Source: Kiritimatiellia bacterium
Lineage (GTDB): Bacteria; Verrucomicrobiota; Kiritimatiellia; RFP12; UBA1067
Assembly: GCA_045545855.1 (NCBI GenBank)
Contig: JAZQBR010000203.1
Location: 1,264-65,263 of the forward strand
DNA length: 64,000 nt
Direction of reading: 5' to 3'
The position numbers and the translations under genes are program-made. Positions 562-61,560 of this stretch are shown one piece after another; position 1 is the stretch's first letter; every line of letters starts with the position of its first letter. Below the pieces are notes generated by a model. The model did no database searches. It worked only from the letters and a program-made list of their open reading frames with translations, and was not told where the DNA came from.

Positions 562-673
562 TTCCTTCACTGCGACAGACCTCCTTCCTTTCTCGCCTGC
601 GCCGCCCAGGCCTTGCGGCACATTATACCAAAAATCGGCGCAACGCGGCGCGTCTTTTTGGTATAATACCCCC

Positions 674-2011: not shown

Positions 2012-2775
2012 ATCGCGACTCTACAGTGCTTGTATGCTCGTGCGACGCCTATCACGATGTCGAGGCCCCTTTCATCGCGCTGTGGCGCCGGTTCTGGCCC
2101 GACTGTCCGTTCGAGACCGTGCTCTTGGGTGAGACCCTGTCAACCGAAGGCTTCGACCGCGCAATACTGACGGGGCGCGGCCTGACGTGGTGCGAGATGC
2201 TTTCGCGAGCGCTGGAGGCGATCGATACGCCCTATGTGCTGATGCTGATGAACGACTATTTTCTCGAAGCCCCCGTCGACACGGCGAAGATTCTCTCGCG
2301 CCTCGATGACGCCAGGCGCTTCGACGCCGCGAGCCTGAGGCTGAACCCGAACCCGCCCGGACGGCTGAAGCGGGCGGGCACCGACCTTCTCGAAATGCCC
2401 AAGAACGCCGCCTACTCGGTGACTTGCCAGACGAGCTTCTGGCGGCGCGAATTTCTTCTGTGGCTCGCCAGACGCAACAAAAGCGCCTGGGAGTTCGAGC
2501 GCCGCGGCTCGTTCATGACCGGCGGCGAGCCACGCCCGCTTCTCGTGACGCCGTCAAAGGAGTTCCCTTTTGTCGATGCCGTCCACAAAGGCTGCTGGGA
2601 ACGCTTCGGCCTCGAAGTCTGCCGCAGAAACGGCATCTCGCTCGCCCATTCGGCGCGCACCCTCCCGCCGTTCCGCACCCGGGTCGCCGAAGGACTGAAG
2701 GGGCTCGTCTTCAGACTCGCCCCCAAAACTCTTCTCGTGCGCCTGCAAAACCGCTTCAACATCGGCGCGCGGTAG
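2008..2775 (+). CDS. Hypothetical protein, translationally coupled to the upstream flippase-like gene
   Basis: 255-aa ORF with coding-like composition. The start overlaps the previous stop. No motif recognised. Confidence 0.45.
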   Translation: MNRDSTVLVCSCDAYHDVEAPFIALWRRFWPDCPFETVLLGETLSTEGFDRAILTGRGLTWCEMLSRALEAIDTPYVLMLMNDYFLEAPVDTAKILSRLDDARRFDAASLRLNPNPPGRLKRAGTDLLEMPKNAAYSVTCQTSFWRREFLLWLARRNKSAWEFERRGSFMTGGEPRPLLVTPSKEFPFVDAVHKGCWERFGLEVCRRNGISLAHSARTLPPFRTRVAEGLKGLVFRLAPKTLLVRLQNRFNIGAR

Positions 2776-2787
2776 TCTGATTTCGCG

Positions 2788-4407: not shown

Positions 4408-4491
4408 TCTAGTGCCTCCATGATTGACCCATATTTTCTCATAAAGGCGCGGCTTGCGCTAGAGCAAAGTTGCGACTTCTGCGCCGTATTT

Positions 4492-5460
4492 TTACGACTT
4501 TACGGCCGTGACCAGCCAATGGGGCATGGGCGGCGGCGCCGGGCGCGTCTCCTCAGGCGAGAGCCCCGCCTCGCGCATCCATCCCTTCAGCTCGCCGTCC
4601 GCGAAAACCCAGCCGTTCTCCGTTGTAAGCGCCATATTGACGGCGAAGAGCGCCGAAAACTTCGGGGCCGTGCGTGTCGCGTCGGTCATCATGTCGAGCA
4701 CATACACCCGCCCGCCCTTTTTCAGAGCGCGCGCCGCGCGGCCGAGTATGGCGACTATCGCCTCGGGCGACTCCTGGTGAAGCGCTCCGAAGATCGTGAC
4801 GGCGTCGTAGGCCGCCTGCTCGTATTCGTCGACATGGTAGTCTCCCGCACGGCATTCTATTCTGTCCGACAGGCCGAACTGCTCCACGTATGCGGCGGCT
4901 TCGGCGCTGATCGCCTTGAGATCGACCGTGACCGCCGAAAGCCCCGCGTTCGCCTGGCACATGAGTATCGCGTACGCGCCGGGGCCGCCGGCGAGATCCA
5001 GGACGCGCCCGCCGAGCGCGCCGAGCATTGGCACCACGCCGCGGCCTATGCCCATCGCGCGCCCGAACATCGCCGCCGCAAACGCCTTGGTGCGCGCGGC
5101 GTCTTCGCCCAGGTGCAGCGAGGGACGCTCCACCGGGCGGCCCGTGCGGGCGAAGTCTGCCAGACGCCCCCACGCCGGGTAGACATCGCGGTTGTACCTG
5201 ATCGCCTTTGTCAAATCGGCCGGCCCGCCCGGCAGCAGCGCCGCCTTCCCGGCCGGTGTGTTCATGTAGACGCCTTCGCTCTTCTTGATCAGAAGCCCTT
5301 CCGCCACGCATGCATCCGCCAAAAGACGCATGCCGCGCCCGCTCGCGTCAAACTCGCCCGACTCGACTTTCGAGAATATGTCCAGATCTATCGCCGCGAA
5401 AAGAACCGCGCTGCCGTAATATGCGCTCGCGAGATCCACGATCTCCTGCACTGACTTCAT
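4492..5460 (-). CDS. SAM-dependent O-methyltransferase (class I, family 2-like with N-terminal dimerisation domain)
   Basis: 322 aa. SAM-binding LDLAGGPGAYAI (motif I) and downstream VYVLDMM acidic motif. The N-terminal winged-helix-like region is typical of plant/bacterial OMTs. Confidence 0.65.
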   Translation of the reverse strand: MKSVQEIVDLASAYYGSAVLFAAIDLDIFSKVESGEFDASGRGMRLLADACVAEGLLIKKSEGVYMNTPAGKAALLPGGPADLTKAIRYNRDVYPAWGRLADFARTGRPVERPSLHLGEDAARTKAFAAAMFGRAMGIGRGVVPMLGALGGRVLDLAGGPGAYAILMCQANAGLSAVTVDLKAISAEAAAYVEQFGLSDRIECRAGDYHVDEYEQAAYDAVTIFGALHQESPEAIVAILGRAARALKKGGRVYVLDMMTDATRTAPKFSALFAVNMALTTENGWVFADGELKGWMREAGLSPEETRPAPPPMPHWLVTAVKS

Positions 5461-6785
5461 TCCTTCTCCTCCCCTGCCATTCGCCTGAGGCGCCGGTCCG
5501 CCAGCTTGAAAAGCTCCAGAAGAACTTCATCGTCGCCCATCGACACGTACTCCGGCCCCCAAAGCTCGTCGGCCTTGTCGGAGGCGAGCTTTCGCCGCAT
5601 CCCGGCGATTATGTCGGCCGCCTTGCCTATGGTAATGGCGTCCGTCGCGAGGCTCTCGAACACCCCGCGCGTCGCGACCCACGCGTCTATCTGCGAGAGC
5701 TCGATCGACGACTGGCTCATCATCGCGTCGGACATGTCGACCCGCTCTGCGACGCTGGGCTCGGCGAATATCTCCTCGAAGCGCGGAATGGCGAGCCGTC
5801 TTTCGGCCTCCGTCAGCCGGGCGTGCGTGGCGGCGAGCCTGTAGCCCAGCGCCCCCGCGGCCAGCGCGGCGGCGATCGCCACGCCCCCCACGTACCGCGC
5901 GACATGGCGTGCCGCGTGCCCGCGCCCCTTCTCGCGCAGATAGCGCTTCTCGGCCTCGGCCTCCGCACGCTCGCGCGCCGCCGCTTTTTCCGCCGCGTAC
6001 GAGAGGCACTCGCGCCCCTCCGGATTGGAGTGCAAGAGCTTCGGCACGATAACCTTCCAGACCGGATCGTACGTCTCAAGCGTCGTCACGACATCAGTGC
6101 GCGAGTCGCACCATGTGCCCGTCAGAAGCTTGTACACGATCACCCCCAGTGCATACCAGTCGGACTGCGGCGAGGCCGCGACCCCGAGCTCTATCTCCGG
6201 CGCCATGTACCCTATCGAGCCCATCACCGGCCGCCGCCCGTCGCGCAGGTTCACTATCGTGTTTACCGTGGATATCACCGACGCCTTGCCGTCGCCTGGC
6301 TCGAACGCCTTTGATATGCCGAAATCCATCAGAACCGCGTGCGAATCGGGCCCGACCATTATATTCTGCAGCTTCAGGTCGCGGTGGACGACCCCCTGCG
6401 CGTGGATGTACGCGAGGGCGTCGCGTATGTCGTCGTACCACATGCCAATCGTCTCTTCGTCGACCGAGCCTTCTTCGACGTCGGCGAGACTTTGCGGCAC
6501 GCCATCGGGGTTGCGCACGAGGTCCATTACGAAATACATGCGCCCGGCGTCTTCGCCCATGTCGGTTACACGCACTATGCGCGGGTGGCTGAGGCGCGCG
6601 AGAAGGAGCCCCTCGGTTTGAAAGCGCCGCCTTACCTCCTCGTCGTCCTTCGGGTAGGCGTAGACCTTGACCGCATGCCGCGAGCCGAGACGCGTATTCT
6701 CGGCCTCGTACACTTCGCTCATGCCGCCCTTGCCCAGAAGCCGCACTACCTTCAGCCCGCCGATGCTCTCGAGTTCGCCTGCCAT
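5457..6785 (-). CDS. Hanks-type serine/threonine protein kinase with C-terminal transmembrane/coiled region
   Basis: GKGGMSEVY (Gly-loop), AVKV (Lys), HRDLKLQNIMV (catalytic loop), DFGISKA (DFG), APE motif. C-terminal hydrophobic helix follows. The stop overlaps the start of the upstream-adjacent gene. Confidence 0.8.
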   Translation of the reverse strand: MAGELESIGGLKVVRLLGKGGMSEVYEAENTRLGSRHAVKVYAYPKDDEEVRRRFQTEGLLLARLSHPRIVRVTDMGEDAGRMYFVMDLVRNPDGVPQSLADVEEGSVDEETIGMWYDDIRDALAYIHAQGVVHRDLKLQNIMVGPDSHAVLMDFGISKAFEPGDGKASVISTVNTIVNLRDGRRPVMGSIGYMAPEIELGVAASPQSDWYALGVIVYKLLTGTWCDSRTDVVTTLETYDPVWKVIVPKLLHSNPEGRECLSYAAEKAAARERAEAEAEKRYLREKGRGHAARHVARYVGGVAIAAALAAGALGYRLAATHARLTEAERRLAIPRFEEIFAEPSVAERVDMSDAMMSQSSIELSQIDAWVATRGVFESLATDAITIGKAADIIAGMRRKLASDKADELWGPEYVSMGDDEVLLELFKLADRRLRRMAGEEKE

Positions 6786-6786
6786 A

Positions 6787-7482
6787 TCACTGCCTCTTCC
6801 CGGGCAATTCGCCCGTTACGTCGAGAATCCACGCCGTGTCGGCCCAGCAGGGATGGCTCTTGTCCTTGAATATCTGCTGCATGATCGGCTTCTTGACTTC
6901 GTCGGCCCGGTTCAGTATGTCGTTGAACACCAGTTCGACAAGATCTTTCTCCTGCGTCTTGTCCATCAAGATGCCGGCGAGCAGCATGACATTCTCGTCC
7001 GGCACGAGATTCAGCGCCCTTTGCAGGCACTCTTCGCGCCGCGCCTTGGGCACCTTTCTGAACTGCTCTGAAAAAGCTTCTATATCCTCCATCGAGACTC
7101 CGGCCTTGGCGGGCTCCATCCACTTGTCGGTCAGCGAATCGAACGCATCCACGAGAGCCGTCTCTTCGCGCTCGGCGCGCGCCGCCTCGTCCTCTGCAGG
7201 CGCCTCTTCGGCCGCGCCCGCCAGGATTTGAGCACCGGCAGCCTCTCCGCTCTCCCGGCCCTGAGCCGCGCCAGCGACCGCACGGCCTTTTGCCGCCTCG
7301 CCAACGGACCCTTGAACCTCGAATGTCTCGCCTTCAGCCGCCTCGCTTGACGCGCCCGTCTCGCCTTCAGCCGCCCGCCCGCTCAAAAAAAAGTGCACGG
7401 CGACCGCGGCGACCGTCGCCGCAATCGCCGCAATGGCGACGAGAAGCGTTGCCCTTCTTCTACTCTCAGCTTTCTGAGTCAT
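6787..7482 (-). CDS. Hypothetical membrane-anchored protein (operon with Ser/Thr kinase)
   Basis: 231 aa. N-terminal TM helix (LLVAIAAIAATVAAVAV), low-complexity Gly/Ala/Glu region with GE(T)GASSEAAEGE repeats, and a C-terminal structured domain. Confidence 0.5.
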   Translation of the reverse strand: MTQKAESRRRATLLVAIAAIAATVAAVAVHFFLSGRAAEGETGASSEAAEGETFEVQGSVGEAAKGRAVAGAAQGRESGEAAGAQILAGAAEEAPAEDEAARAEREETALVDAFDSLTDKWMEPAKAGVSMEDIEAFSEQFRKVPKARREECLQRALNLVPDENVMLLAGILMDKTQEKDLVELVFNDILNRADEVKKPIMQQIFKDKSHPCWADTAWILDVTGELPGKRQ

Positions 7483-8311
7483 CGCTGCTGCCGCCGTAGA
7501 ACTCTTCGTCGTCTTCGTCGTCCGGATTCTCCTTCAGCCATTCGTCCAGCTGCTCGGCTGTAGTGATCTCTTCCTCGCCTGTGTAGAACTCGATGTTGTC
7601 GGGCAGCACAGACTTCGTCGCGTCGCTGCCCGAGACCATCAGCTCCTTTATTGTCTCGACGGCGACCGAGTGTCGCATGTTGTTGAGCTCGAAAAGCATC
7701 GAGTCCATCGCGTCCGCGTCAGTTATAACCTTGGCCGCCTGGATAAGTATGAGCGAACGCTCGCGGTCGCTCAGATCGAAATCTGAAAGCGCCTCTTCAT
7801 ACTTCTCGACCGCCGTCTGCAGAACTTCGGCGTCAGCATCGGCGAGAAAACCGGCTATCTCCGGCAGGCACGAGACGCCAAACCAGCCCAGCGCCTCGAT
7901 CGCGGCCATCCTTATCGACTTCGGTATGCCGTCGGGCCACTCGTCAGAGGCCTGCATCCTCTGCACCAGCCTGACTACCGTCTTCTTGTCCTCCATATCG
8001 AGAGCCTTGCGGATCTCCTCAATGAGCTTGCGCTGCTCTTCGGTCAAGTTCAATTCTTCTTCGTCTTCGACCGCGAACGTCGGCTTCTGGCGGGCGGCCT
8101 CGTCCCCGCCGATCGGCACCGGCTTTCTGCTCTCGAGCCTCTTTCTCGCCGCTGCCAGGTTGGCGCTTTTGGCAGGCTTTTCCTGCGCTTTCTTAACGAC
8201 TATCGCCTCGGCCGCCGGCTTTGGTTCATGCCCTTTGTCTATAAAGAACATGGATAGCGCGCCAAGCCCGGCCGCCACGACAGTCACCAATATCAACTTC
8301 CATGTATTCAT
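7466..8311 (-). CDS. Hypothetical membrane-anchored protein with acidic C-terminal tail
   Basis: 281 aa. N-terminal TM helix, central helical region, and a C-terminus of DDEDDEEFYGGSSDDSES. Overlaps the downstream gene by 17 bp. Confidence 0.5.
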   Translation of the reverse strand: MNTWKLILVTVVAAGLGALSMFFIDKGHEPKPAAEAIVVKKAQEKPAKSANLAAARKRLESRKPVPIGGDEAARQKPTFAVEDEEELNLTEEQRKLIEEIRKALDMEDKKTVVRLVQRMQASDEWPDGIPKSIRMAAIEALGWFGVSCLPEIAGFLADADAEVLQTAVEKYEEALSDFDLSDRERSLILIQAAKVITDADAMDSMLFELNNMRHSVAVETIKELMVSGSDATKSVLPDNIEFYTGEEEITTAEQLDEWLKENPDDEDDEEFYGGSSDDSES

Positions 8312-11030: not shown

Positions 11031-11300
11031 TCCAACTCCCAACTCCTCCACTCCTAACTCCCTCACTCCCACACTTCGCTACTCCCTCACGCCCCCACTC
11101 CTTCACGTCTCTCCACGCTTTCACCAAATTGACAAGTCCCTTCTTCCTCTGCACCCGGCTCACAAACAACAATACCTTCTTACCATCTGCACGCTCTACA
11201 CGGCTCAAACTCCCCCACTCCCTCTCTCCCACACTCTCAACTCTACATGTTTCTACACGTTCTACACGGCTATTTATATTCACCCCCAGCGGAGCGGCAA
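11000..11300. repeat. Strand-asymmetric CT-rich microsatellite-like array (AACTCC/CACTCC units)
   Basis: Runs of ctccaactccaactcatctctccaactcccaactcctccactcctaactccctcactcc. Overlapping ORFs (10946..11368, 10867..11424) are low-complexity artefacts. Confidence 0.6.
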
Positions 11301-22028: not shown

Positions 22029-22844
22029 TCACCTAAACCACTTATAGCCGTAATAGCCGATGTACTCGTGGATGAACGAGTTATTGCGGGCGAAGGCGTC
22101 GAAGCTCGGCAACAGACCACGCCATTTGAAAGGTTCATCCTTCCACGGCAATGCCTGATAATCCGTCGCGGCCGGGATGCACTCTATCTCAGGCGCATAC
22201 TTTTTGAACATGTACAAGCTTCGTTTCATGTGACATGCGCTCGTCACCAACAATATACTTGGCTTCTTTGCGACCTCTGCTCCTTTGAGCCTCTGCGTTA
22301 CAATTTCTCCAACAAATTTTGCGTTCTCCTCGGTGTTCACCGCCTTGTCCTCCAACACAACAGCCTCACGCGGAACACCCAAATCCACAAGCAATTTCAC
22401 ATCCCCGAACTCGGCACCGACATTGCTTGAAATGACGATAGGCGCTTTCCCAGCCTTCCAGAGCCTTGCCGCATGCCATGGCCGGTCCGCCGCCTCATTC
22501 ATGCAGGCGTAGGGATAGCATTCGTCACCCCAAACGCCTCCGCCCATCAAAACAATCGCATCAGCTTTCGTCATATCCTCCGCCAACTGTACAGGGTAAT
22601 CCTCTTCAAGCGGCAACGCCAGCCAACCGCCGACAATCGGCATCGACCAAAACCAGAACCATGACAAGGCCGTTCCCAAAGTCCACATCACTGCTTTACG
22701 CTTTTTGAGCAGGGCAAACGTCTGCCCCAAGGCAACAGCCACAATGCCTACAAACAGCGGATTGGCGACAAAACCGACAATCTTATTTATCGTGTTCACA
22801 ATTTCATGCAACCATGTAGAACATGTAGAACGTATAGAAACCAA
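22029..22844 (-). CDS. YdcF/ElyC-like DUF218 family protein (start uncertain)
   Basis: ILLVTSACHMKRSLYMF and VLMGGGVW motifs of DUF218 with an N-terminal TM segment. The listed N-terminal residues STCSTWLHE are encoded by a CATGTAGAA repeat arm, so the true start is probably downstream. Confidence 0.55.
   Translation of the reverse strand: MVSIRSTCSTWLHEIVNTINKIVGFVANPLFVGIVAVALGQTFALLKKRKAVMWTLGTALSWFWFWSMPIVGGWLALPLEEDYPVQLAEDMTKADAIVLMGGGVWGDECYPYACMNEAADRPWHAARLWKAGKAPIVISSNVGAEFGDVKLLVDLGVPREAVVLEDKAVNTEENAKFVGEIVTQRLKGAEVAKKPSILLVTSACHMKRSLYMFKKYAPEIECIPAATDYQALPWKDEPFKWRGLLPSFDAFARNNSFIHEYIGYYGYKWFR
22812..22840. repeat. Solo arm of TGTAGAA-unit element (ccatgtagaacatgtagaacgtatagaa)
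   Basis: Three tandem (C/A)TGTAGAAC units with no inverted partner nearby, between the GT4 stop and the ydcF-like gene. Confidence 0.5.
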
Positions 22845-22864: not shown

Positions 22865-24130
22865 TCAACTGACCACTTCCCCGTAAATCTCCATTAGTCG
22901 CTTGTAGTTCGCTTCTTCTGAATATTTAGTTTCAGCCTCGTGCTTTGCCGCTGCACATACTTCGTCATAATCTGAACGCGACAGAAACCGCTTTATCGCC
23001 GCCGCACATGCCTCTGCATTGCCAGCCTCAAACACTTCACCGAAACGGTTTTCCTGCACGATCTCTGGCAAGGCACCAAGATTGCTCGTCACAACAGGCG
23101 TTCCCTCTAGCATTGATTCCACGACCGTCAATCCAAATGTCTCCCACCATTCACTTGGAAGGACAGTAGCCTTGGATTTAGCCATAAGACGGAGTACTTC
23201 AGCGGCTGATTTCAGGCCGACAAACTCAACATCCCCCCCGTCGGCAAGTTTCTCAAGCTCCTGCCGATCAACACCATCGCCGACTATTATCAGCTTGAGG
23301 TTATTTAACCATGTAGAACATGTAGGAGCATGTAGATGTTCTTTATGACAAATAATCTTGAAAGCCTTTATAAGAGTTTCGACACCTTTCTCTTTCGATA
23401 GCCGCCCAACATAAACTATCTGATCTTTCTTAAGGATGGGGGATGAGGGATGTGGGATGGGGGATGGGGGTGTTATTCTCATCCCTCCTATCTCATCTCG
23501 CATCCCTATCACAAAATTGCCCTTCACAGCAATTTTGTGTTCTGGCCAGCCATATTCAACCATCTTCCGCTTCTGGAACTCGCTCAGTACAATAAACCTT
23601 GAAACCCACTTTGGCAACCGCCTTCGATAAAGCGCAATGTTGATTGCAAGCGGCAATGTTGCCGCCAGACTTCCGCGATAGCAACGATACTTGATTCCAT
23701 CACATACACATCTCTTATCCAAACACAGCGAGCACACTTTCCCGTCCCTCGTCGGCACGCCTGCCGCACAAGCCATTCGATAGTTGTGTAGAGTCATCAC
23801 GACCTGCGCATACTTGCTCGCCGCACGAACCGCCAACGGGCTGATAAGCGGGAAGGTGTTATGGAAGTGAACGACATCCGGCTTGAATTCTCTACATTTC
23901 TTCGCAACCGCCCGCGCCGCGAACGGATTGCCGACCGTACACAGCGCCCCTTTGATTTTACCCAAGATCCTTTTAATTGCATTGCCGCACCGTATTTCAT
24001 CACTATGCCGGGCATATACAGCGACCTCATGTCCATGCTTCTCCAGCATGGCCTTCTCTGCCTCGAAGACCTTGTTCTCGCCTGACGGCGCCGATGAGCC
24101 ATAGTAGTTATGGACAAGGAGAATCCTCAT
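22865..24130 (-). CDS. Glycosyltransferase, GT4 family, carrying two in-frame repeat-element insertions
   Basis: MRILLVHNYYGSSAPSGENKVFE... N-domain and ...ETFGLTVVESMLEGTPVVTSNLGALPEIV C-domain. The segments HLHAPTCSTWLNN and ITPPSPIPHPSSPIL are encoded by repeat elements at 23301..23337 and 23435..23510. Confidence 0.7.
   Translation of the reverse strand: MRILLVHNYYGSSAPSGENKVFEAEKAMLEKHGHEVAVYARHSDEIRCGNAIKRILGKIKGALCTVGNPFAARAVAKKCREFKPDVVHFHNTFPLISPLAVRAASKYAQVVMTLHNYRMACAAGVPTRDGKVCSLCLDKRCVCDGIKYRCYRGSLAATLPLAINIALYRRRLPKWVSRFIVLSEFQKRKMVEYGWPEHKIAVKGNFVIGMRDEIGGMRITPPSPIPHPSSPILKKDQIVYVGRLSKEKGVETLIKAFKIICHKEHLHAPTCSTWLNNLKLIIVGDGVDRQELEKLADGGDVEFVGLKSAAEVLRLMAKSKATVLPSEWWETFGLTVVESMLEGTPVVTSNLGALPEIVQENRFGEVFEAGNAEACAAAIKRFLSRSDYDEVCAAAKHEAETKYSEEANYKRLMEIYGEVVS
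23301..23337. repeat. TGTAGAA-unit element arm inside GT4 CDS (tatttaaccatgtagaacatgtaggagcatgtagatg)
   Basis: Shares the TTTAACCATGTAGAAC terminus with the elements at 28984 and 34190 and is read in-frame. Confidence 0.55.
23435..23510. repeat. G-rich palindromic element (GGGATGAGGGATGTGGGATGGGGGATGGGGG ... CTCATCCCTCC...CATCCCTATC) inside GT4 CDS
   Basis: Tandem GGGATG units on the left and complementary CATCCC units on the right. Read in-frame (PPSPIPHPSSPI). Confidence 0.5.
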
Positions 24131-24600
24131 GTTTAATTAGCCGTGTAGAACGTGTAGATCGTGTAGAATTATGCGGTGATGGTACGACGCTCGAATTTAT
24201 AGGAACCAAAATTTACAAGAAGTCCAACAGGATGCCGCGTGATCTTCAAGTAGTTTATAATCTGGGCAAAGTGTTCAGGAGCAAACGTTTTAACGGCCTT
24301 AAGCTCAACTATCAAGCTATCATTTACAAACATGTCTACAAAATACTCCCCGACACAATATCCGTCCCTGTCGAACACTTTAAGCGGTTTTTGTCGTTCG
24401 ACTTTATAGCCCGCAATTACAAGCCTATGCTCCAAGGCCGCCTCATAAACCTTTTCCAGCAATCCCGTGCCAAAGTATTCATGCACCCCATACGCAATCT
24501 GACCTACATCAGCTGCCAGTTTCCTTAATTCATCAGCGCAACCATCCATACTTCCCACCTTCTGCACGTTTCTACACGTTCTACACGGTTAGAACCCTTC
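24131..24600. mobile_element. ~470-bp cassette bounded by inverted arrays of CGTGTAGAA units, carrying a GxxExxY gene
   Basis: Left terminus ttaattagCCGTGTAGAACGTGTAGATCGTGTAGAA (24133..24168). Right terminus cacgTTTCTACACGTTCTACACGGttagaacc (24561..24600) is its inverted complement. The left end abuts the GT4 start codon and the right end overlaps the 3' end of the kinase-like gene. Confidence 0.55.
24169..24549 (-). CDS. GxxExxY family protein (PD-(D/E)XK-like small protein)
   Basis: MDGCADELRKLAADVGQIAYGVHEYFGTGLLEKVYEAALEHRL... contains the GLLEKVY = GxxExxY motif. About 126 aa from ATG at 24549 (the ORF track begins at an upstream GTG). Confidence 0.65.
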   Translation of the reverse strand: MDGCADELRKLAADVGQIAYGVHEYFGTGLLEKVYEAALEHRLVIAGYKVERQKPLKVFDRDGYCVGEYFVDMFVNDSLIVELKAVKTFAPEHFAQIINYLKITRHPVGLLVNFGSYKFERRTITA

Positions 24601-25465
24601 CCCTCCTTCTACACGGATATGCATCAATTCCCAACAGCCCTTTGACCTGCTTCTTAAACCAGGATTCATCCTTGCCCTCGACCCACTGCCCTGCGTCTTC
24701 CCAATCCCAGACATACAATTTGCCATCCACGATAGAACAGTTCCACGGAGCAAAGTCGCCGTGCGACAAACCCGCCCTTCTCAATTCGTCCAGAAATACA
24801 TAATGCTCCTTCTGCATCCGAACAGGGCTTTTGCCTTTCGGCAATACCGACTGCGCACTCCATGTCCATGCCCCATCATGCCCGACATCGCCTATGGCAA
24901 CAGGTACTTGCGCACACAAAGGCGTCATCATCAGCCTTTTCAGCACGTCCACCTCTTCCCTGATCGCCTCTGCCGCCTTATCTGTCCTTCCCAACTTCAA
25001 TATGATTTCATTTGTGTTTAACACAGAGTCACAGAGACGCAGAGGATTGGGAGAGTCAGAAGAAATCTCTGTGCCTCTGTGCCTCTGTGTTAAAACCTTC
25101 ACCAGCACCGTCAACTTGGACTTCGCCGAATCGTTTCCCATATAAAGCGTTATCCACTCTATCTTCTTTGCGAACTTTGCGTTCTTTGCGGCTAAATCAT
25201 CTATCGCTTTCCCTATTACCTCGTGTCCATCCAGTTCATCAAACCGCTTGATTGGCCCATGAACCATCTTCTCGATGGGCAGCCATGCGAACCATCCCAG
25301 AACCTTTACAGCCCACTTCAGCACCTTGCGCCCTGGCGTGTGCATCGCCAGCCCTGCCCGCTTGCTTGCGGCAGATGAAAGGTCAATCCACACGCGCGGT
25401 TTCGGAGACGGAAGGCCAAGGAATCTGTGCATAGATATTTTCATGTGCACCTCATGATACAACAT
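24581..25465 (-). CDS. Phosphotransferase-family kinase-like protein (APH/choline-kinase fold)
   Basis: Brenner motif LSHGDFAPWN and DWE motif VWDWEDAG. An in-frame palindromic element lies at 25019..25092. The C-terminus overlaps the cassette TIR. Confidence 0.5.
   Translation of the reverse strand: MLYHEVHMKISMHRFLGLPSPKPRVWIDLSSAASKRAGLAMHTPGRKVLKWAVKVLGWFAWLPIEKMVHGPIKRFDELDGHEVIGKAIDDLAAKNAKFAKKIEWITLYMGNDSAKSKLTVLVKVLTQRHRGTEISSDSPNPLRLCDSVLNTNEIILKLGRTDKAAEAIREEVDVLKRLMMTPLCAQVPVAIGDVGHDGAWTWSAQSVLPKGKSPVRMQKEHYVFLDELRRAGLSHGDFAPWNCSIVDGKLYVWDWEDAGQWVEGKDESWFKKQVKGLLGIDAYPCRRRGRVLTV
25019..25092. repeat. Palindromic element built from CACAGAG units (cacagagtcacagagacgcagagg ... cctctgtgcctctgtg) inside CDS
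   Basis: Tandem 7-mers on the left, their complement on the right, and a ~25-bp loop. Translated in-frame within the kinase-like protein. Confidence 0.5.
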
Positions 25466-28983: not shown

Positions 28984-29228
28984 ATTTAACCATGTAGAGC
29001 GTGTAAAGTTATGCCGTAATTGTGCGACGCTTTAATTTGCACGAACCAAAGTTTACGAGAAGACCTGCAGCGTTATGAAGAGTCGATTCATAAGCCTTTT
29101 CAAATAAGTCATTCTCAAAATATTCGTATACATCATACGCCACTTGCCCTACTCCCGAAGCGAGTTCTCTCAATTCATCTACTTCATCCATGCACCACCT
29201 CCACTCTACACGATCTACACGGCTATAC
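28984..29228. mobile_element. Degenerate second copy of the CGTGTAGAA-TIR cassette with a decayed GxxExxY gene
   Basis: Termini tttatttaaccATGTAGAGCGTGTAaag (28984..29008) and cacctccactCTACACGATCTACACGGctatac (29195..29226). The internal sequence is homologous to 24165..24330 but carries a deletion. Confidence 0.5.
29009..29191 (-). pseudogene. GxxExxY gene remnant (internal deletion)
   Basis: MDEVDELRELASGVGQVAYDVYEYFENDLFEKAYESTLHN...AGLLVNFGSCKLKRRTITA parallels the intact copy (…VGLLVNFGSYKFERRTITA) but lacks ~35 central residues. The listed ORF 29009..29305 reads through the flank. Confidence 0.5.
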
Positions 29229-30569: not shown

Positions 30570-31657
30570 CTACTCTCCTTGACCAATCTCTCAACCGACA
30601 ACCTCAGGTCATATTTGAGCAACGATTCGTTGCTACGGGCAGGCAGACGGTCAATGGCCGCCTTGAAGTCAACCATATCGTTACAAGCAAAAACAGTACC
30701 GCTTATGCCATCCTCTATCATAACCGCCGCGCCCAAATGGCTGGCGACCACACACGGAGTTCCCCACTGCAAAGCCTCTGCGACAACTGCTCCGAATGTT
30801 TCTGAATGACTGCACAATACAAGACCGTCCGCCATTGCCATCATCGCGTAGAGGGAATCACCCTCCTTCCTGCCAGCGAACACCACCCGATCATCAAGTT
30901 TCAACGCGGCTACCATCGCTTTTAATTCCGTATCCAATACTCCGTCGCCAACTAAAACAAGTCCCGTTGTTTTAGGTTGCTCTCGCATCTGCTCTATTAG
31001 CCAAGGCAGATTCTTGACTTTCGCAAAGCGCCCTACGAACACAAGTACACGGTTCCATACCTTGGGGCAGTTCGCTTCTCGCCATGCACGCCCCGCCGCA
31101 TAGATTTTGTCTGCGTTCTTTCGCATTGTCGCCGTATCATGGATTATGGGCACGACAGAGTAGTTGTTGGTGGTTAGTCGATAGTCGTCGGTTGATAGAG
31201 AGCGATAAGCGTCAGCGGCGGCTTGACTGGGAACGATTATCTTTTCGACATTTCGCAGAACCCAATCGCGCATGATACGTCGCAATCCTCTCCGTGACCT
31301 AATCTGTTCGGCGCTGTCATCCATGCTCGTCCATATTTTGGCGCTAACGAGCCCAAGCTTCTTCAACAGAACCAGTTCAAGCGTGAGCGGGCTTGCTTCG
31401 TAGGCAAGAATGATGTCTGGACATTCACGACGGACAATCCCAAGGATGCCAGTGCGGATGCATCGTCCGCGTATGCAAACGCCGTTTGTCAAATGCTCAT
31501 ACGGCACTCTAAGCCTTTCCAGCAATGCTTTCTGGTCGAACTTCTGAGTCTGCAAATTCTCCTGAAGGAATACCATTTTCAATTCCGCCAGCTCACCGAG
31601 CAGATTGAAGAAATCAACCCGGTATGGCGCAAGAGCAGGATGGAAGCAGATAATCTT
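30566..31657 (-). CDS. Glycosyltransferase, GT4 family
   Basis: Starts at MKIICFHPALAPYRVDFF (ATG at 31657, overlapping the upstream stop). C-terminal ETFGAVVAEALQWGTPCVVASHLGAAVMIEDGISG. Confidence 0.65.
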   Translation of the reverse strand, partial: KIICFHPALAPYRVDFFNLLGELAELKMVFLQENLQTQKFDQKALLERLRVPYEHLTNGVCIRGRCIRTGILGIVRRECPDIILAYEASPLTLELVLLKKLGLVSAKIWTSMDDSAEQIRSRRGLRRIMRDWVLRNVEKIIVPSQAAADAYRSLSTDDYRLTTNNYSVVPIIHDTATMRKNADKIYAAGRAWREANCPKVWNRVLVFVGRFAKVKNLPWLIEQMREQPKTTGLVLVGDGVLDTELKAMVAALKLDDRVVFAGRKEGDSLYAMMAMADGLVLCSHSETFGAVVAEALQWGTPCVVASHLGAAVMIEDGISGTVFACNDMVDFKAAIDRLPARSNESLLKYDLRLSVERLVKESR

Positions 31658-32859
31658 CATTGACCGCGAACTACTCCTTCCATCCATTGATACATTCCGC
31701 CGACAAGAACATCCCACTGCTTGCGGGCAAGGAACCACTTCTTTATCGTCCCGAACTTCGCTCGTTTACGCTCTTCGTCCCAAGCAAGCACTTCACGGAT
31801 CTTGGCGACATAATCTTCCGCCGTGTCGCCTTCCGCAAACTCCACGACCTCGGCATAGTCAGGCGACAAGCTTTCAAGTCGCGTACTGACGACCGGGCGA
31901 CCGAAACTAAGGTAGTGCGGCAGCTTGCTTGGGTAGTTTAATATGTTGTCGGGATGATGGGGATCGCGTACATTCAGCAATACATCCGCGTTACGGCATA
32001 TGCGGTTCATCTCTTCCTCTTCCACGAAGCCTGGCAACTCAACGTATGGGTTGTCGCCAAACAACTTCGCAAGGATACGGCAACTGGACTTGCCGCAGAA
32101 TATGAACTTTATGTCGGGCGCAGCCATTTTGCGGACAACCTCAACCATGAAATCAAGTCCGCGCCACTGATCGAGCGCTCCTGTATGGACAAGTGTCTTA
32201 GTCGTTAGCCGCTGGTCGTTAGCCGTTAGCTTGTGGTCATCAACACCACTATCGACTAACGACTGACGACTATCGACTTCTTCTCCTCCACACCAACCAT
32301 CCGCCCCGCCGTCCATATGGTATTTTGGCACATCAACAGGGCAATGCGTATGCACCCACCACGAAAGCGAGACGATGCCGCTTGAATATTGCCCAGCCCG
32401 TTTCACCCAACCCCAGTCATCCTTGCGCGGATCGTCGCCATCAAGAATTATGGGGAAACACGGAACACCCATGCCGCGCAGGATTTTCATTGTGCGCACA
32501 AGGTAGGGCAAATGGCAATTGTAAAATATGGCCACATCGATTTTCTTCTGGCGAGCGATTTTCCTTGCCTCGACCGGGTATCGCCATACATACCACCAGT
32601 CGCGGAAATATTTGATTACAGGATATGAAAGTGCCACGCAATCCCACCCGTCAGGGTAGAGACGCTTATCGTATCCACGCCACAACACCTTGCCCTTCGG
32701 CCATGACACTTCGTATGTGTGGGTGAGTGCCGTCACATTGGATATCTTCGAGAGTGCAGTCAGGAACCCTCGCGCCCATTTCGCCGCCGCAAGCGAGACC
32801 GGGCGGTTCATCTGCGCCCATTCGCTGTCGTTCGGGCCTATGTAGAGTATGTTCAGCAT
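31657..32859 (-). CDS. Glycosyltransferase, GT4 family, with in-frame palindromic insertion
   Basis: MLNILYIGPNDSEW... and a GT4 C-domain (VLLNVRDPHHPDNILNYPSKLPHYLSFGRPVV). The segment VDSRQSLVDSGVDDHKLTANDQRLT is encoded by the GTCGTTAG-unit element at 32198..32278. Confidence 0.65.
   Translation of the reverse strand: MLNILYIGPNDSEWAQMNRPVSLAAAKWARGFLTALSKISNVTALTHTYEVSWPKGKVLWRGYDKRLYPDGWDCVALSYPVIKYFRDWWYVWRYPVEARKIARQKKIDVAIFYNCHLPYLVRTMKILRGMGVPCFPIILDGDDPRKDDWGWVKRAGQYSSGIVSLSWWVHTHCPVDVPKYHMDGGADGWCGGEEVDSRQSLVDSGVDDHKLTANDQRLTTKTLVHTGALDQWRGLDFMVEVVRKMAAPDIKFIFCGKSSCRILAKLFGDNPYVELPGFVEEEEMNRICRNADVLLNVRDPHHPDNILNYPSKLPHYLSFGRPVVSTRLESLSPDYAEVVEFAEGDTAEDYVAKIREVLAWDEERKRAKFGTIKKWFLARKQWDVLVGGMYQWMEGVVRGQ
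32198..32278. repeat. Palindromic element of GTCGTTAGCC units (tagtcgttagccgctggtcgttagccgttagc ... cgactaacgactgacgactatcgac) inside CDS
   Basis: Tandem units and their complements. A partial copy of the unit (accaacgactaacgacc) also occurs intergenically at about 49078..49100. Confidence 0.5.
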
Positions 32860-32860
32860 A

Positions 32861-33907
32861 TTACGCCCTTCCCCCTGTCAACAAATTGAATATCCTCGGC
32901 GAACAACGCTTTGAAAGGAGGCCGACAAGGAGCGCCCCCCCCATCCCAGACAAGATTTTAAGGAGATACATCGTCAACGTTTGCAGATGAAACGCCAGCC
33001 CAACCCGTAACGCCACGGAAATCATCAATGTGTGGATTGCATAGATAAAGAACGTTAATCCGACAAATCTCCTGCTCAATGGCGATACACGATCAACCAT
33101 TTGCAGATTGGCAAACACTGCACACACGCCAGAGAAGACAAGCACTTTGTCTGCAATGTCAAACGCCATTTTGTTGCGATACACGCCGAACAAGACCTTG
33201 CAAACAATACTTGTGCAGAATATGGCAAGCACAAGATGTCTTCTATCGACAAGTGTTTTTCGCAATTCTAAGAAACTGTCGGCATCGCGCATTCTGAATC
33301 CAACCCATGATCCAACTGCGAGCCACAAGAAATTACCTGCGGCAAGCGGCAACGGCAGATAGTACCAGAACGTGCCTATCCACCCGGCAAGGAAGACGCA
33401 AATCAATACCACCCCATGCAATTTGTTCCGCAATAACGGAAGAATCAGGGGCGCAGCAAGCACATATATGAAAACTGTCTGCAAATACCAGAACTGCATG
33501 CAGCCAAGGCGGACATATGGGTCATAACCAAAAATCTTCGCCATAATTGACAAACCTTCATGCAATTCCCCAGACAGAAGCGCAAGCGCAAGATAAATGG
33601 CGTTCCATAGAACGAATGGAACATACAGCGTGATGAGTCGCTTCCTTATTTCATTGGTAAACCATGTGAACCATCCATTGCCCGGATATCCCTTGACAAG
33701 GAAGAACCCCGTGATCGTGAAGAAGATCGGTACGGCTATTCGTGGAACCGTGTATGTCCCCAGAAAATAGAACGCCGCCTCCAATTTGCCGACAGGCATC
33801 TCCCCAGCGAACCACGGCGCCATAGACTGGCAATGGATCGCGACAACAAGCAATGCGCACAGGAAAGCCACCGTGCGCAGACGCTCGCTTGTCTTGGCGG
33901 ATATCAT
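32861..33907 (-). CDS. Acyltransferase family 3 membrane protein
   Basis: N-terminal RTVAFLCALLVVAIHCQSM, with about 10 TM helices. A homopolymeric G-run encodes MGG near the C-terminus. Confidence 0.7.
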   Translation of the reverse strand: MISAKTSERLRTVAFLCALLVVAIHCQSMAPWFAGEMPVGKLEAAFYFLGTYTVPRIAVPIFFTITGFFLVKGYPGNGWFTWFTNEIRKRLITLYVPFVLWNAIYLALALLSGELHEGLSIMAKIFGYDPYVRLGCMQFWYLQTVFIYVLAAPLILPLLRNKLHGVVLICVFLAGWIGTFWYYLPLPLAAGNFLWLAVGSWVGFRMRDADSFLELRKTLVDRRHLVLAIFCTSIVCKVLFGVYRNKMAFDIADKVLVFSGVCAVFANLQMVDRVSPLSRRFVGLTFFIYAIHTLMISVALRVGLAFHLQTLTMYLLKILSGMGGALLVGLLSKRCSPRIFNLLTGGRA

Positions 33908-35196
33908 TTGCCTCGCTCCTGTTTGACAACGTTTTCAAGCGCGGCAATGTAACGCTTCACGACAGCGGTCATCATGAATCGTTCTTTCACGTTCCTTACG
34001 GCATTGCCAGACATCTTTGCCCTCGCCGAATAATCAAGCATCAAGTTCTCGATGCATTCCGCCAACTTCTCTGGTCTTGTTACGTTGCATACGACACCGC
34101 CCGCAACGGATGATTCCGATCTTTCCTTTTCATTTAGCCGTGTAGAACAGGGAGAACATGAAGGATTTTCTACACGCTCTACATTTTCTACATGGTTAAA
34201 TCCATCGATTCCCAACACCCACGGCACCGCGCCACTCTTCTCGCCGCCGACGCACGGGACTCCATGCGCCATCGCCTCTATGAAAACCATGCCAAAACTC
34301 TCTTCCAAGGACGGACTGCAAAATACATCCGCCTCTTTCTGCAACGCTCGCCGTATCATCTCCGAAGAGCCATAACCTCGCAACTCTATGCACCCGGAAT
34401 CGATGAGACGACCCATGCCATTCTGCCGCATCCAAGGATCGGCACCGCGTTGATCCATATAATGTCCATACACCACCAGCCGCCATTCCGGGTGTCTCGC
34501 ATGGAGCAGCGCAAATGCCTTGAAAAGCGTCTTAGAGTTCTTGAGGCGACCCCACTGCGTGACACACAATATCGTCCGCGCTTCGAGGCGGATTTCAATC
34601 CTGCCGGCCTGGGCGGTTTCTTCCTTAATGGCATTTGGAATAATCTCCACCGGCTTGCGATAGAAGTTGAAGTTTCGCAGATCTTCCGCCATGTGCGGAG
34701 AAACGGTAGCCATGTGCTTGACATGTGGAAAAACAAAGAACTGTGAATATATCGCCTTGAAAAGCGATGCGGCATTGCGCATTGTCCATACGACCCGCCA
34801 AGGAGAGTCATGCGCCACAACAAGCGTTGGAACGCCACTTTTCAGAGCAGCACGTGCATACTGATATGTCCAGTTCGCCAGTATGACATCCGGCTTTGCC
34901 TTATGTATTTCGTCAACCATACATGACACTTCTTTTGAATAGAACGTCATGTATTGATAGCGGCAACGTCTTTCGGGAACAATCCTGATCTCCAGACGGC
35001 CAGCCGTATAGGTGGTTGCCGCGGAATGGTTCATGTCTGTGACGACTACAGAAACCTCATGCCCGGAATCAACCAATGCAGCGACCAGATCGCTTCCGTA
35101 GTTGAAATCCCATCTGACGGACGGCAATTGCCTGTCGAACTTGAATCGTTCTGCAAGACAAGACAGCGTGACACGCCCTAAAAACGCTATCTTCAT
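33904..35196 (-). CDS. Glycosyltransferase, GT4 family, with an in-frame miniature CGTGTAGAA-TIR element
   Basis: Starts at MKIAFLGRVTLSCL (ATG at 35196). C-domain ...ADVFCSPSLEESFGMVFIEAMAHGVPCVGGE... The segment GFNHVENVERVENPSCSPCSTRLNEKERSE is encoded by the element at 34133..34202. Confidence 0.65.
   Translation of the reverse strand: MKIAFLGRVTLSCLAERFKFDRQLPSVRWDFNYGSDLVAALVDSGHEVSVVVTDMNHSAATTYTAGRLEIRIVPERRCRYQYMTFYSKEVSCMVDEIHKAKPDVILANWTYQYARAALKSGVPTLVVAHDSPWRVVWTMRNAASLFKAIYSQFFVFPHVKHMATVSPHMAEDLRNFNFYRKPVEIIPNAIKEETAQAGRIEIRLEARTILCVTQWGRLKNSKTLFKAFALLHARHPEWRLVVYGHYMDQRGADPWMRQNGMGRLIDSGCIELRGYGSSEMIRRALQKEADVFCSPSLEESFGMVFIEAMAHGVPCVGGEKSGAVPWVLGIDGFNHVENVERVENPSCSPCSTRLNEKERSESSVAGGVVCNVTRPEKLAECIENLMLDYSARAKMSGNAVRNVKERFMMTAVVKRYIAALENVVKQERGK
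34133..34202. mobile_element. Miniature (~70 bp) cargo-less copy of the CGTGTAGAA-TIR element (MITE-like) inside a CDS
   Basis: tttagCCGTGTAGAACagggagaacatgaaggattTTCTACACGCTCTACATTTTCTACATGGTTAAAtcc. Both termini match those of the 24131 and 28984 cassettes, with only ~20 bp between arms. Confidence 0.55.
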
Positions 35197-35606
35197 CTCT
35201 TGCCTCCAAGCAATGCAGGACAAAATCTCAATATTGCGACAGAAGCAACCCAGCTGACGCATATAGTCGCAAACATAATGCCGCAAAGCAGAATCGCAAG
35301 ACTTCCGCCAGTCAGGATGCATCCAGATGGCAATAAGCGGACGGACGCGACGATGATGAATTTATGCAATAGCATTATTCCGAGCGAACATTCCCCTATG
35401 CGCTTCCAAAGTGGATTCGAGAGGCATCCCGCGATGCCGGCAGACAGCGCAGCGCCGACAAGTCCGGACATCCATGCGATGTAACTGAACATAATCCTGT
35501 TAGACCAACCATTATCGTGCAACCAGTTAACCGACATGGCCACAGCCACAATGACAGGCACCCCAAGCATGCTCCACATCCCCCGGCAAACGACTTGCAT
35601 CATATC
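35193..35606 (-). CDS. Possible small polytopic membrane protein downstream of wzy (start uncertain; may be an acyltransferase C-terminal remnant)
   Basis: The listed ORF 35193..35912 overlaps the wzy-like gene by ~190 bp. Its distal 135 aa (MMQVVCRGMWSMLGVPVIVAVAM...IMLLHKFIIV...) are strongly hydrophobic. Confidence 0.25.
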   Translation of the reverse strand, partial: DMMQVVCRGMWSMLGVPVIVAVAMSVNWLHDNGWSNRIMFSYIAWMSGLVGAALSAGIAGCLSNPLWKRIGECSLGIMLLHKFIIVASVRLLPSGCILTGGSLAILLCGIMFATICVSWVASVAILRFCPALLGGKR

Positions 35607-48242: not shown

Positions 48243-48977
48243 ATGGCTGCTGTTAAGCCTCAATTGAAATACCGCGTCGTCAATGGCTACAACCCAAAGA
48301 CGCGCGGAACCTGCAAGCGCCCCCAGATCACGGAACGCGAAACCTACTACCTCGATCAGGTGGTGCAATTCGCGCTGGACAACGGATTCGTCCGTGGCCA
48401 GTTCCAGGACATGAAGGGTGCGCTCAACGGGTTCATCGAATGCATCCAGTACCTCGGGCTGACCGGCAAGGCCGTCTCGCTCAACGACTGGCTCAGAGTC
48501 CATTCCGAACTCACGGGAACGGTCGGCGAAGACTACCAGCTCACGTCCGGCAACGACTTGCGCGTCCGCATCCAGGCTCTCAAGGAACTGAAGACGAGCG
48601 TGGACAAGTTCAGCTGGACGAACGTGAGCGACACGGGCGTTCTGCCGAAGATCGATTCGCTCATGTACGTTGGCGCTCCGAAAAGCGGTGAAATCAAGAA
48701 GTCTCTGGCCATCATCGCCACGGGACGCAATCTTGCGTTCAACGCCGCCTTGGGCGACACCGTGACGCTTATCTGGACGGAAGGCGACGAGGCCAAAACC
48801 GTTACCCTCACGCCTGCCGAGAGCGACTATTCGCACATGAAGTTCAACTGGCCGTCTGCATTGGCTGACGTGCCGGACGGAACCGAAATTACGTTCACCT
48901 TCACTCTCCACGGCGGAGTGGAAGGAGGCGCGGCCCATACGGCCACGAAAAGCGTGAAGCTTCTCGCTGCCGCATAA
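48243..48977 (+). CDS. Hypothetical protein (244 aa)
   Basis: Clean ORF with strong codon bias. The antisense 579-aa ORF 47349..49088 is an artefact of this high-GC block. Confidence 0.55.
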   Translation: MAAVKPQLKYRVVNGYNPKTRGTCKRPQITERETYYLDQVVQFALDNGFVRGQFQDMKGALNGFIECIQYLGLTGKAVSLNDWLRVHSELTGTVGEDYQLTSGNDLRVRIQALKELKTSVDKFSWTNVSDTGVLPKIDSLMYVGAPKSGEIKKSLAIIATGRNLAFNAALGDTVTLIWTEGDEAKTVTLTPAESDYSHMKFNWPSALADVPDGTEITFTFTLHGGVEGGAAHTATKSVKLLAAA

Positions 48978-48986
48978 GCTAATTAT

Positions 48987-49061
48987 CTCACGCAAAGTCC
49001 GTGACGTACGCAAAGTTTCATCCCTCAGGCGCCTTTGCGTCTTTAGCGGACTTTGCGTGAG
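48987..49061. repeat. Palindromic element of ACGCAAAG units (tctcacgcaaagtccg...cgcaaag ... ctttgcgt...cggactttgcgtgag), 10 bp after the stop codon
   Basis: Perfect 15-bp outer inverted repeat and inner CGCAAAG/CTTTGCG pairs. No downstream U-tract. Confidence 0.5.
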
Positions 49062-49100
49062 CGATCTATCCATACCACCAACCACCAACGACTAACGACC

Positions 49101-61159: not shown

Positions 61160-61560
61160 GCGGTTATTGAGCGAAATGGGAGGTGAATCTTCGCCTTTCA
61201 AGCGAGTTACTGACCCCAGTGGGCAAAAGCGCCACCCCCTCGGAGGGGGTGAAGCGAAGCGCCCCCACTACATCGCGACACCCCCTCTGGCAGGGTAGCG
61301 CGACCCTGCCAGGCAGGGTGTACCCGACCCTGCCGGGCGGGGTGGCGCGACCCCGTCCGGCACCCAAAGGCGACCCCGCCAGAGGGGGGCGAGGTTCTTG
61401 CCTCAAGGACGAAATCGTCGCAGGACCCACTACCGCTACCACTAAACCTACCGCTCGGGCCGCCCGGTGGTCGGCCCCTACCGTTTGGGGCACACCTCAA
61501 TCCTGTCAATCCTGTTAATCCTGTCAAAACCTCTACACCTCTACACGGCCAAAAATCCGC
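61160..61560. repeat. GC-rich repeat-dense intergenic region (CGACCCTGCC(A/G)GGC(A/G)GGGT units, CTACCGCT units, CAATCCTGT x3, CTCTACAC x2)
   Basis: Read directly. ORFs 61164..61493, 61183..61518 and 61207..61527 here are frame artefacts. Shares a ~30-bp block TCGGGCCGCCCGGTGGTCGGCCCCTACCG with 63360..63390. Confidence 0.5.

Follow-up and report, generated by a model that had tools for sequence, protein, structure and literature searches.

A palindrome of tandem CACAGAG units translated within a kinase-like gene: a probable ORF-less miniature of an IVS-type class of foldback element

The 64,000-nt stretch of DNA considered here (the window; contig JAZQBR010000203.1 of assembly GCA_045545855.1, from a Kiritimatiellia bacterium) contains, at 25017-25094, a 78-nt palindrome built of CACAGAG units that lies within the gene for a kinase-like protein. 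The host gene (24581..25465, minus strand) encodes a 294-aa protein assigned to the APH/ChoK-like kinase fold, its match to the Pfam APH/phosphotransferase family (PF01636) being weak and falling on the C-lobe. As a first-pass annotation of the sequence had stated, the open reading frame (ORF) passes through the palindrome in frame, reading it as LTQRHRGTEISSDSPNPLRLCDSVLN, and the element, equal in length to 26 codons, encodes residues 125-150 of the protein. Our analysis goes beyond that annotation in two respects, namely the genes carried by related elements and the likeness of these elements to the intervening sequences (IVSs) of rRNA genes.

The palindrome and the sites it occupies

With respect to anatomy, the element is ORF-less and can be written as TTTAA-(CACAGAGN)x3-21 nt loop-(CTCTGYGN)x3-TTAAA. 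Specifically, an outer stem or leader, TTTAA (25017..25021), is followed by a left arm of three units, CACAGAGT CACAGAGA CGCAGAGG (25022..25045, plus strand), a loop, ATTGGGAGAGTCAGAAGAAAT (25046..25066), a right arm, CTCTGTGC CTCTGTGC CTCTGTG (25067..25089, plus strand), and the second half of the outer stem, TTAAA (25090..25094). The loop differs between copies, as judged by comparison with L001 (labels of this form denote loci fetched from other genomes or metagenomes). The first-pass annotation had described a palindrome of tandem 7-mers around a 25-bp spacer; the palindrome is indeed present, but the loop measures 21 nt and the repeat period is 8 nt, each unit being a 7-mer followed by one variable base, with three units per arm. 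When the TTTAA and TTAAA ends are included, the arms are 28 nt long, 89% complementary and 22 nt apart. There is no ORF in the 21-nt loop, and the TTAA found at both ends of the element is itself part of the palindrome.

Among the inverted repeats of the 64-kb window, the palindrome ranks first, with ranks 2 and 3 taken by 48987-49061 and 32200-32278. It folds at -39.8 kcal/mol (z = -4.4) on one strand and at -40.2 kcal/mol (z = -5.4) on the other, and none of 200 shuffled sequences gave a fold as stable. Unit doublets paired with reverse-complement doublets were found three times in a scan of the window, compared to zero or one in shuffles, and five of the seven CACAGAG heptamers of the window lie inside 25017-25094. 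A search of Rfam under its gathering and E-value thresholds identified no family for the element, the sole likeness being a sub-threshold one to generic miRNA-precursor hairpins, and neither rRNA nor any other Rfam family was detected within the window.

Roughly 150 orthologues of the kinase-like protein were recovered from Kiritimatiellia-type metagenome-assembled genomes (MAGs) and gut metagenomes, with a modal length of 245 aa (range 243-295), and their alignment reveals two indel hot spots. The palindrome occupies one of these, site B, which falls after the strand KLTVMV. In an AlphaFold model of the window protein, the inserted residues 125-150 are placed between strands E117-125 and E153-159, with low confidence for residues 128-138, and on this model the site is a tolerant hairpin loop. 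The element is an insertion or replacement relative to the orthologues, most of which lack it, and what stands at site B differs from one to the next: some have no hairpin at all, L010 has a single arm, (CGCAGAGN)x4, L005 and L006 have a CGTGTAGAA-unit hairpin that is translated as RVERVDRVE...STRSIRS, L008 has a GAGTGGAGGAGTAG tandem, and L001 has a diverged homologue of the window element whose arms contain two units each. The site B allele of L007 (10001-10870) carries, nested in its first CGCAGAG unit, a 50-nt GC-rich insert (TATCCCCCAACCGAAGG...GGGGTGAG) read as YPPTEGCPQRGCPSRG; this nested insert is common to several orthologues.

The second hot spot, site A, is filled in the window by a solo arm, TTCTTTGCG AACTTTGCG TTCTTTGCG plus GCTAAA (25164..25196, plus strand), which contributes LAAKNAKFAKK to the kinase-like protein. 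In the sense of the gene it reads TTTAGC-CGCAAAGAA CGCAAAGTT CGCAAAGAA, that is, one arm with its leader, and the orthologues have two or three of these units, with zero in L009. The variation at site B is relevant to the idea of a host-encoded hypervariable loop, in which codon-level repeats would be diversified by selection. Site B does lie in a loop and is highly variable among orthologues, but the DNA units also occur between genes, in other genes, in other reading frames and in other phyla (see below), the two arms encode unrelated peptides, and DNA palindromy is meaningless at the protein level. We regard this explanation as highly improbable. In the terms of the first-pass annotation, which had set codon repeats conserved in orthologues and confined to the host protein against its own proposal, the units are not conserved in this way, the site being an indel hot spot with different elements or none, and extra copies are present in other genes and genomes.

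Relatives in other genomes and the genes they carry

As for the wider family, 185,579 species genomes were scanned with the query CRCAGAGNCRCAGAGNCRCAGAG, which returned at least 120 matches, compared to a chance expectation from base frequencies of about 2. The hosts among the matches listed span Acidobacteriota, Planctomycetota, Alpha-, Beta-, Gamma- and Deltaproteobacteria, Chloroflexota, Cyanobacteria, Verrucomicrobiota, Kiritimatiellota, Spirochaetes, Bacillota, Bacteroidota and a Methanotrichaceae archaeon. About half of these listed loci have a complementary arm within 10-190 nt, and outer stems conserved among them include TTCAC-C...G-GTGAA, GAAC/GTTC and TTAA. More than 120 CRCAGAG array matches were also obtained in IMG/VR, where three putative viral contigs (L165, L196 and L201) have long pure (CGCAGAGG)n arrays at or near their ends. 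A metagenome scan with the window's own leader (TTTAAC...) likewise gave more than 120 loci, and the TTTAA leader is found on L052 and on a hairpin in L001 (4178-4255). The latter, TTTTAA-CACAGAG..-TTAAAA, has the same outer stem and arms as the window copy and a different loop; it lies in another glycosyltransferase gene and is missing from the L007 orthologue. As regards detection, a strict tandem-array detector overlooked most arms, and pairing with loops of up to 1 kb produced many false pairs in high-GC DNA, so that short pairs and blast-confirmed cargo were kept.

In-frame copies are found well beyond the window. A 114-nt CACAGAG hairpin in an Acidobacteriaceae MAG (L094, 6580-6693) is in frame in DnaE (DNA polymerase III alpha), inside the HHH_6 domain of what is an essential gene product, and in L127 a hairpin is in frame in TrpE (anthranilate synthase I), between its two domains. 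Overall, 25 of 61 hairpins lie in frames that are open for at least 40 codons on both sides, and the element length modulo 3, taken over all copies, has no clear bias (41, 29 and 34 for remainders 0, 1 and 2, respectively). Within 5 kb of a Dehalococcoidia MAG (L014, 2336-7289), there are three CACAGAG hairpins with different loops, two of which bracket a 276-aa alpha/beta-hydrolase-like ORF.

The loci of the CACAGAG family contain a range of other units (CACGGAG, CGCGGAT, CACAGAT, CGCAGAT, CACAAAG, CACGAAG, CGCGAAG, CGCCAAG and CGCAAAG), most of which fit CRCRRAK, together with unit types unrelated to it, and elements are nested in the loops of other elements in L038, L013, L022 and L112. The CACAGAG, CGCAGAG and CGCAAAG units differ by one or two transitions, and because they mix within single arms, we view the 'CACAGAG' and 'ACGCAAAG' families as neighbours and not as independent inventions. 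The first-pass proposal of several families with a shared layout thus holds for the layout, but not for the independence of these three.

A structure of this stability could in principle be selected as RNA, serving as an RNase III site, an mRNA stability element or a small RNA that regulates the polysaccharide operon. The 28-bp stem is very stable, and the homologous-looking stem of the rRNA IVS is cut by RNase III (PMC4990558). The mismatches within the stems, however, are G.U-type in 96 cases and A.C-type in 88 (31 versus 39 when assigned by the sense of the host ORF), with no excess of G.U. Moreover, elements point either way with respect to the genes that host them (11 versus 14), conservation does not extend to the loop, Rfam holds no family and most orthologues lack the element. 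The balance of G.U and A.C mismatches, the occurrence of both orientations and the absence of an Rfam family are the reasons why palindromy looks like a property of the DNA rather than of a strand-specific RNA under selection. An RNA-level role is, in our estimation, very unlikely, and RNase III cleavage of the stem, if any, may be a side effect.

An ORF-carrying relative is found about 430 bp from the palindrome, wedged between the kinase-like gene and a GT4 gene (24137..24592, minus strand, with the element proper at 24142-24587). Its CGTGTAGAA-unit arms (24142-24168 and 24560-24587), consisting of three 9-mers and their complements, surround a gene at 24169-24567 for a 132-aa GxxExxY PD-(D/E)XK nuclease, assigned from matches to GxxExxY (TIGR04256, 2.7e-33) and PDDEXK_3. 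Residues D78, E88 and K90 of this protein are invariant in 24 homologues. Its predicted fold (predicted local distance difference test score 88.5) has generic PD-(D/E)XK neighbours at a TM score of ~0.5, including Cas4, lambda-exonuclease-like enzymes, archaeal tRNA-splicing endonuclease and Hjc, which do not pin down a substrate; a PDB sequence search with the protein gave no match, and PADLOC returned a weak PDC-S02 match alone. At the kinase-like gene, insertion of this element has displaced the stop codon: the end of the ORF (24581-24625) is YPCRRRGRVLTV, reading into the arm of the GxxExxY element, and the orthologues end in LLGIDA followed by a stop. With respect to abundance, about 2000 GxxExxY proteins were found at E <= 1e-5, of which the best 120 are 75-98% identical to that of the window, and many of the matches sit on contigs of less than 1 kb, as is to be expected of a repeat present in many copies, at which metagenome assemblies break.

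The junction between the kinase-like and GT4 genes occurs in several states. It is empty in L001 and L007, where the stop codon overlaps the start codon (GATGC-ATGA). In L005 and L010 it is filled by TTAGC-(CGCAAAGNN)x3-GxxExxY ORF-(NNCTTTGCG)x3-GCTAA, an element whose own TAG restores the stop codon, and L009 has a 207-nt internally deleted element with the same arms, in which the two ends of the GxxExxY ORF are retained; internal deletion can turn an ORF-carrying version into an ORF-less one. In L006, GAAGTCGAA arms surround a gene for 23S_rRNA_IVP (IVP, the intervening-sequence protein of 23S rRNA), and in the window the junction holds the CGTGTAGAA/GxxExxY element described above.

Every full-length GxxExxY or IVP gene in the fetched loci (10 of 10) has inverted unit arrays on its flanks, and these two are the only genes found between such arms. 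Relatives with other units carry IVP in L006, L008 and L359, and long versions with GxxExxY genes between CRCAGAG arms are present in L040, L108 and L112. Seven metagenome loci have a GxxExxY ORF between CRCAGAG arms, most with TTTAA/TTAAA ends visible, and an ORF-carrying partner of the window's hairpin type therefore exists. The connection to the CGTGTAGAA elements that the first-pass annotation had drawn on architecture is borne out at this level, as both these elements and the CRCAGAG-armed elements with a TTTAA leader carry the GxxExxY nuclease gene. Among GxxExxY proteins from elements with CGCAGAG arms, mutual identity is 50-96%, whereas it is only 28-40% to those that have CGTGTAGAA or CGCAAAG arms, though L112 belongs to the class of the window's host. 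Since the identity of the proteins follows the arm units, arms and cargo descend together.

The ends and the cargo also bear on the suggestion that the palindrome is an ordinary miniature inverted-repeat transposable element (MITE), moved in trans by a transposase that targets TTAA or TA (IS630/Tc1-like or piggyBac-like), with GxxExxY and IVP as mere passengers. The terminal inverted repeats, the many copies and the TTAA that the window copy and L001 4178-4255 each have at either end would suit such an element. The TTAA nonetheless belongs to the palindrome, and other members end in GTGAA/TTCAC, GAAC/GTTC or TTAGC/GCTAA. Furthermore, no duplication accompanies the clean empty and filled states of the junction, the loops show no relation from copy to copy, and the arms were not seen to enclose a transposase. 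We give this explanation little credence.

A third alternative is recurrent birth in situ, whereby slippage would generate the tandem units and template switching during replication would copy them in inverted form, yielding home-grown hairpins. Such a process would sit well with the variation by whole units among orthologues (and among Coxiella strains), with the common solo arms and unrelated loops, and with the single transitions that link unit families. It sits poorly with identical arms and outer stems in unrelated genes and distant phyla, with the co-descent of arms and cargo gene, and with a single gene junction that is filled by four different elements and empty in other loci. Birth in situ thus appears improbable, though in situ processes may shape the arms after insertion. 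As between the mobilisation and the recurrent DNA-level birth that the first-pass annotation had left as alternatives, inherited and mobile elements are favoured, since the arms are accompanied by their outer stems and cargo from phylum to phylum; the 'modular recognition arms' that it attached to mobilisation remain inferential.

Further elements are distributed over the window, at least five of them in frame: those at kinase sites A and B and those in three other genes. In the GT4 gene 22865..24130, a GGGATGAG-unit hairpin (23434..23497) is read as MRDEIGGMRITPPSPIPHPSSPI. A GTCGTTAG-unit hairpin (32200..32278) is in frame in a second GT4 gene (31657..32859), where it forms a 16-18 aa insertion in the inter-domain linker; the closest orthologues are without it, and some others have different inserts. 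(A tblastn search with this protein against the first ten loci found no orthologue, whereas a protein search did.) The third gene, ORF 33904..35322, contains a CGTGTAGAA-unit hairpin with a TTTAGC/GTTAAA outer stem (34133..34200). Between two plus-strand ORFs lies a ACGCAAAG-unit hairpin (48987..49061), which begins 10 nt past the TAA of ORF 48243..48977, and a partial GTCGTTAG-type arm (49078..49100) stands directly ahead of an ATG. The GT4 hairpin with its partial copy and the hairpin just past a stop codon had been correctly noted in the first-pass annotation. Solo arms at gene boundaries are represented by CATGTAGAA/CGTATAGAA (22813..22839, plus strand) and CGTGTAGAG/CGTGTAGAT (29204..29221, minus strand), and CGTGTAGAA-type arm copies with a GCTATTTA outer end are found at 11186..11268 (minus strand).

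Toward the end of the window, three tandem copies of TCAATCCTG are followed by CTCTACAC CTCTACACG-GCCAAAAA, a solo CGTGTAGAG-type arm (61497-61547). Nearby, at 61229-61391, is a cluster of overlapping GC-rich palindromes (GCGCCACCCCCTCGGAGGGGGTG..., GGGTAGCGCGACCCTGCCAGGCAGGGT...) that are unlike the unit hairpins in kind and may be a REP-like array (REP, repetitive extragenic palindrome), and a palindrome of ATTATACCAAAAATCGGCGC / GCGCGTCTTTTTGGTATAAT, with 20-nt arms and a 6-nt spacer, is located at 622-667. The GC content falls from 61-65% at 1-8000 to 43-55% at 10000-62000, which comprises the glycosyltransferase/acyltransferase cluster where the elements are concentrated, and this drop suggests that the low-GC cluster is a foreign or fast-evolving polysaccharide island.

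Comparison with known palindromic elements

The closest likeness that we found is to the IVSs of rRNA genes, as described for Coxiella burnetii. The 23S rRNA IVS of this organism is 428 nt long, with terminal inverted repeats that form a 28-bp stem; after AGAAGA come tandem GACAGAT heptamers, of which there are two or three according to strain, and the IVS contains an S23p (23S_rRNA_IVP) ORF that is affected by a 176-bp deletion in one strain (PMC4990558). The same study reports that RNase III cleaves within the stem, that the sporadic distribution of IVSs suggests horizontal transfer, and that their origin and function are unclear (PMC4990558); origin and mobility have been open questions since about 1990. 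The Coxiella helix-45 IVS and the window element thus share a stem of about 28 bp formed by terminal inverted repeats and tandem heptamer-type units of variable number, GACAGAT being close to the CACAGAG and CACAGAT units found here. The loop, in relatives of the window element, likewise optionally holds a 23S_rRNA_IVP gene that can be deleted. In contrast to the rRNA IVS, the window copy has no ORF and resides in a protein-coding gene, with which it is translated in frame, and many of its relatives carry the GxxExxY nuclease instead of IVP. In the literature that we searched, IVSs are described in rRNA genes only. The window element is therefore not an rRNA IVS in the strict sense, being outside rRNA and without an ORF.

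As for the proteins, the literature calls IVP and PDDEXK_3 uncharacterised, and IVP genes have been noted wedged between cas genes. No role is known for either the abundant '23S rRNA IVS protein' family or the GxxExxY family (PMC3424549, PMC11270868).

The window element is palindromic and lies in frame in a protein-coding gene, two features that it has in common with the Rickettsia palindromic elements (RPEs). The latter are short palindromic repeats found in frame inside protein-coding genes, including essential ones, where they are tolerated as extra peptide segments, a finding reportedly made by Ogata et al. in 2000. RPEs are conserved over their whole length and restricted to Rickettsia, and to our knowledge they have neither tandem-unit arms nor an autonomous partner. 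The window element has no sequence relation to them; its host belongs to the Kiritimatiellia, and no sequence match emerged from Rfam or the literature. In terms of architecture, the foldback (FB) transposons of Drosophila and other eukaryotes are a further parallel, as they consist of inverted arms of tandem sub-repeats around a variable or near-absent loop, some with genes in the loop. These elements are eukaryotic and of kilobase scale, depend on a different transposase and are not read in frame, so that the likeness is one of architecture only (tandem-unit inverted arms and a variable loop) and does not extend to host domain or transposase.

Small non-autonomous palindromic repeats that are present in many copies per genome, such as MITEs, Correia (nemis) elements and REPINs, provide a last comparison. 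Correia elements are RNase III substrates when transcribed and are associated with TA duplications. With MITEs, the window element has terminal inverted repeats in common, and internal deletion from a larger element with the same ends is seen here as well (L009 versus L005/L010), with a cargo that is no known transposase. Unlike MITEs, the copies considered here are not conserved over their full length, and their loops are unrelated within one genome or lineage. More generally, members of these three groups are conserved in full sequence and mostly extragenic, with RAYT (REP-associated tyrosine transposase) partners in the case of REPINs, whereas the elements here share only arms and outer stem, and their partners are GxxExxY or IVP. 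In REPINs, mobilisation in trans depends on a gene present in single copy (PMC3116915). The intragenic position of the window element also sets it apart from REP/REPIN-RAYT systems; a faint match to a Y1_Tnp gene was noted in L005.

Interpretation and significance

Taken together, these observations lead us to conclude that the palindrome is probably an ORF-less miniature of a widespread, IVS-type class of foldback insertion element. This assignment draws on copies at multiple sites and in multiple phyla, on ORF-carrying partners, on variation in unit number, on nesting and on the lack of strand bias. Members of the proposed class have a short outer stem, two arms of 2-4 tandem 7-9-nt units and a variable loop, in which the full-size members hold a single small gene, either for the GxxExxY PD-(D/E)XK nuclease or for IVP, a four-helix-bundle protein. 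The classical 23S rRNA IVS would then appear to be a special case of the class, resident in rRNA.

In terms of mechanism, the elements would spread as DNA, helped by the cargo nuclease, which would act on cognate unit arrays or extruded hairpins, and short ORF-less copies could be mobilised in trans; the copies that lie in frame in DnaE speak against a long intermediate that disrupts the gene. Once inserted, the arms may be kept alike by slippage and by templated repair from arm to arm. The copies that selection then retains would be only those that contain no stop and preserve the frame, in tolerant loops or at the edges of genes, and the window palindrome probably persists because it supplies exactly 26 stop-free codons to a tolerant surface loop within a variable polysaccharide locus. 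When transcribed, its 28-bp stem might be an RNase III substrate, as in the rRNA IVS, in which case the host mRNA would be cut.

Several observations weigh against the assignment to a mobile IVS-type class. No near-identical pair of copies at two sites was found in our searches, and no movement was observed. Among orthologous loops there is no exact empty site for the window copy, the short alleles still carrying GGGATGAG-like units, and the clean kinase-like/GT4 junction of L005 and L010 has no target-site duplication. The window itself has no CRCAGAG-armed GxxExxY gene. One arm architecture is associated with two unrelated cargo proteins, one of which lacks a nuclease fold, and the correlation between arms and cargo could reflect linkage only. 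The copies share arms and not loops, unlike ordinary MITEs, and solo arms that retain the leader are common, which simple insertion does not explain. Nor does the proposed mechanism account for the tandem units of the arms or for the differing loops. Finally, the comparison with rRNA IVSs draws on the description of Coxiella in a single paper (PMC4990558).

A bolder version of the foldback-class assignment is one that we advance tentatively and hold to be possible rather than probable. In this version, the rRNA IVSs would be the visible tip of a pan-bacterial class of selfish foldback elements, whose cargo protein would read unit arrays as interchangeable address labels; the elements would home into hairpin tips, gene junctions and tolerant protein loops, and ORF-less miniatures would lie in frame in thousands of proteins, including DnaE.

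What is new here is a probable IVS-type or foldback palindromic element that is located outside rRNA and translated in frame. The literature that we searched contains no description of such elements in protein-coding genes or of unit-array arms as a general feature, and a string search for CACAGAG arrays retrieved no paper. A broader significance is plausible. If these elements are of the same kind as the rRNA IVS, there would be thousands of insertion sites outside rRNA, whose empty, filled and decayed forms would allow the rules of insertion to be worked out, as well as a defined nuclease/DNA pair for biochemistry. Unexplained peptide insertions in frame, differences in length among bacterial proteins and breaks in metagenome assemblies would also have a source in these elements. 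For annotation, odd peptides such as TQRHRGTE...LCLCVSV would become recognisable as element-derived.

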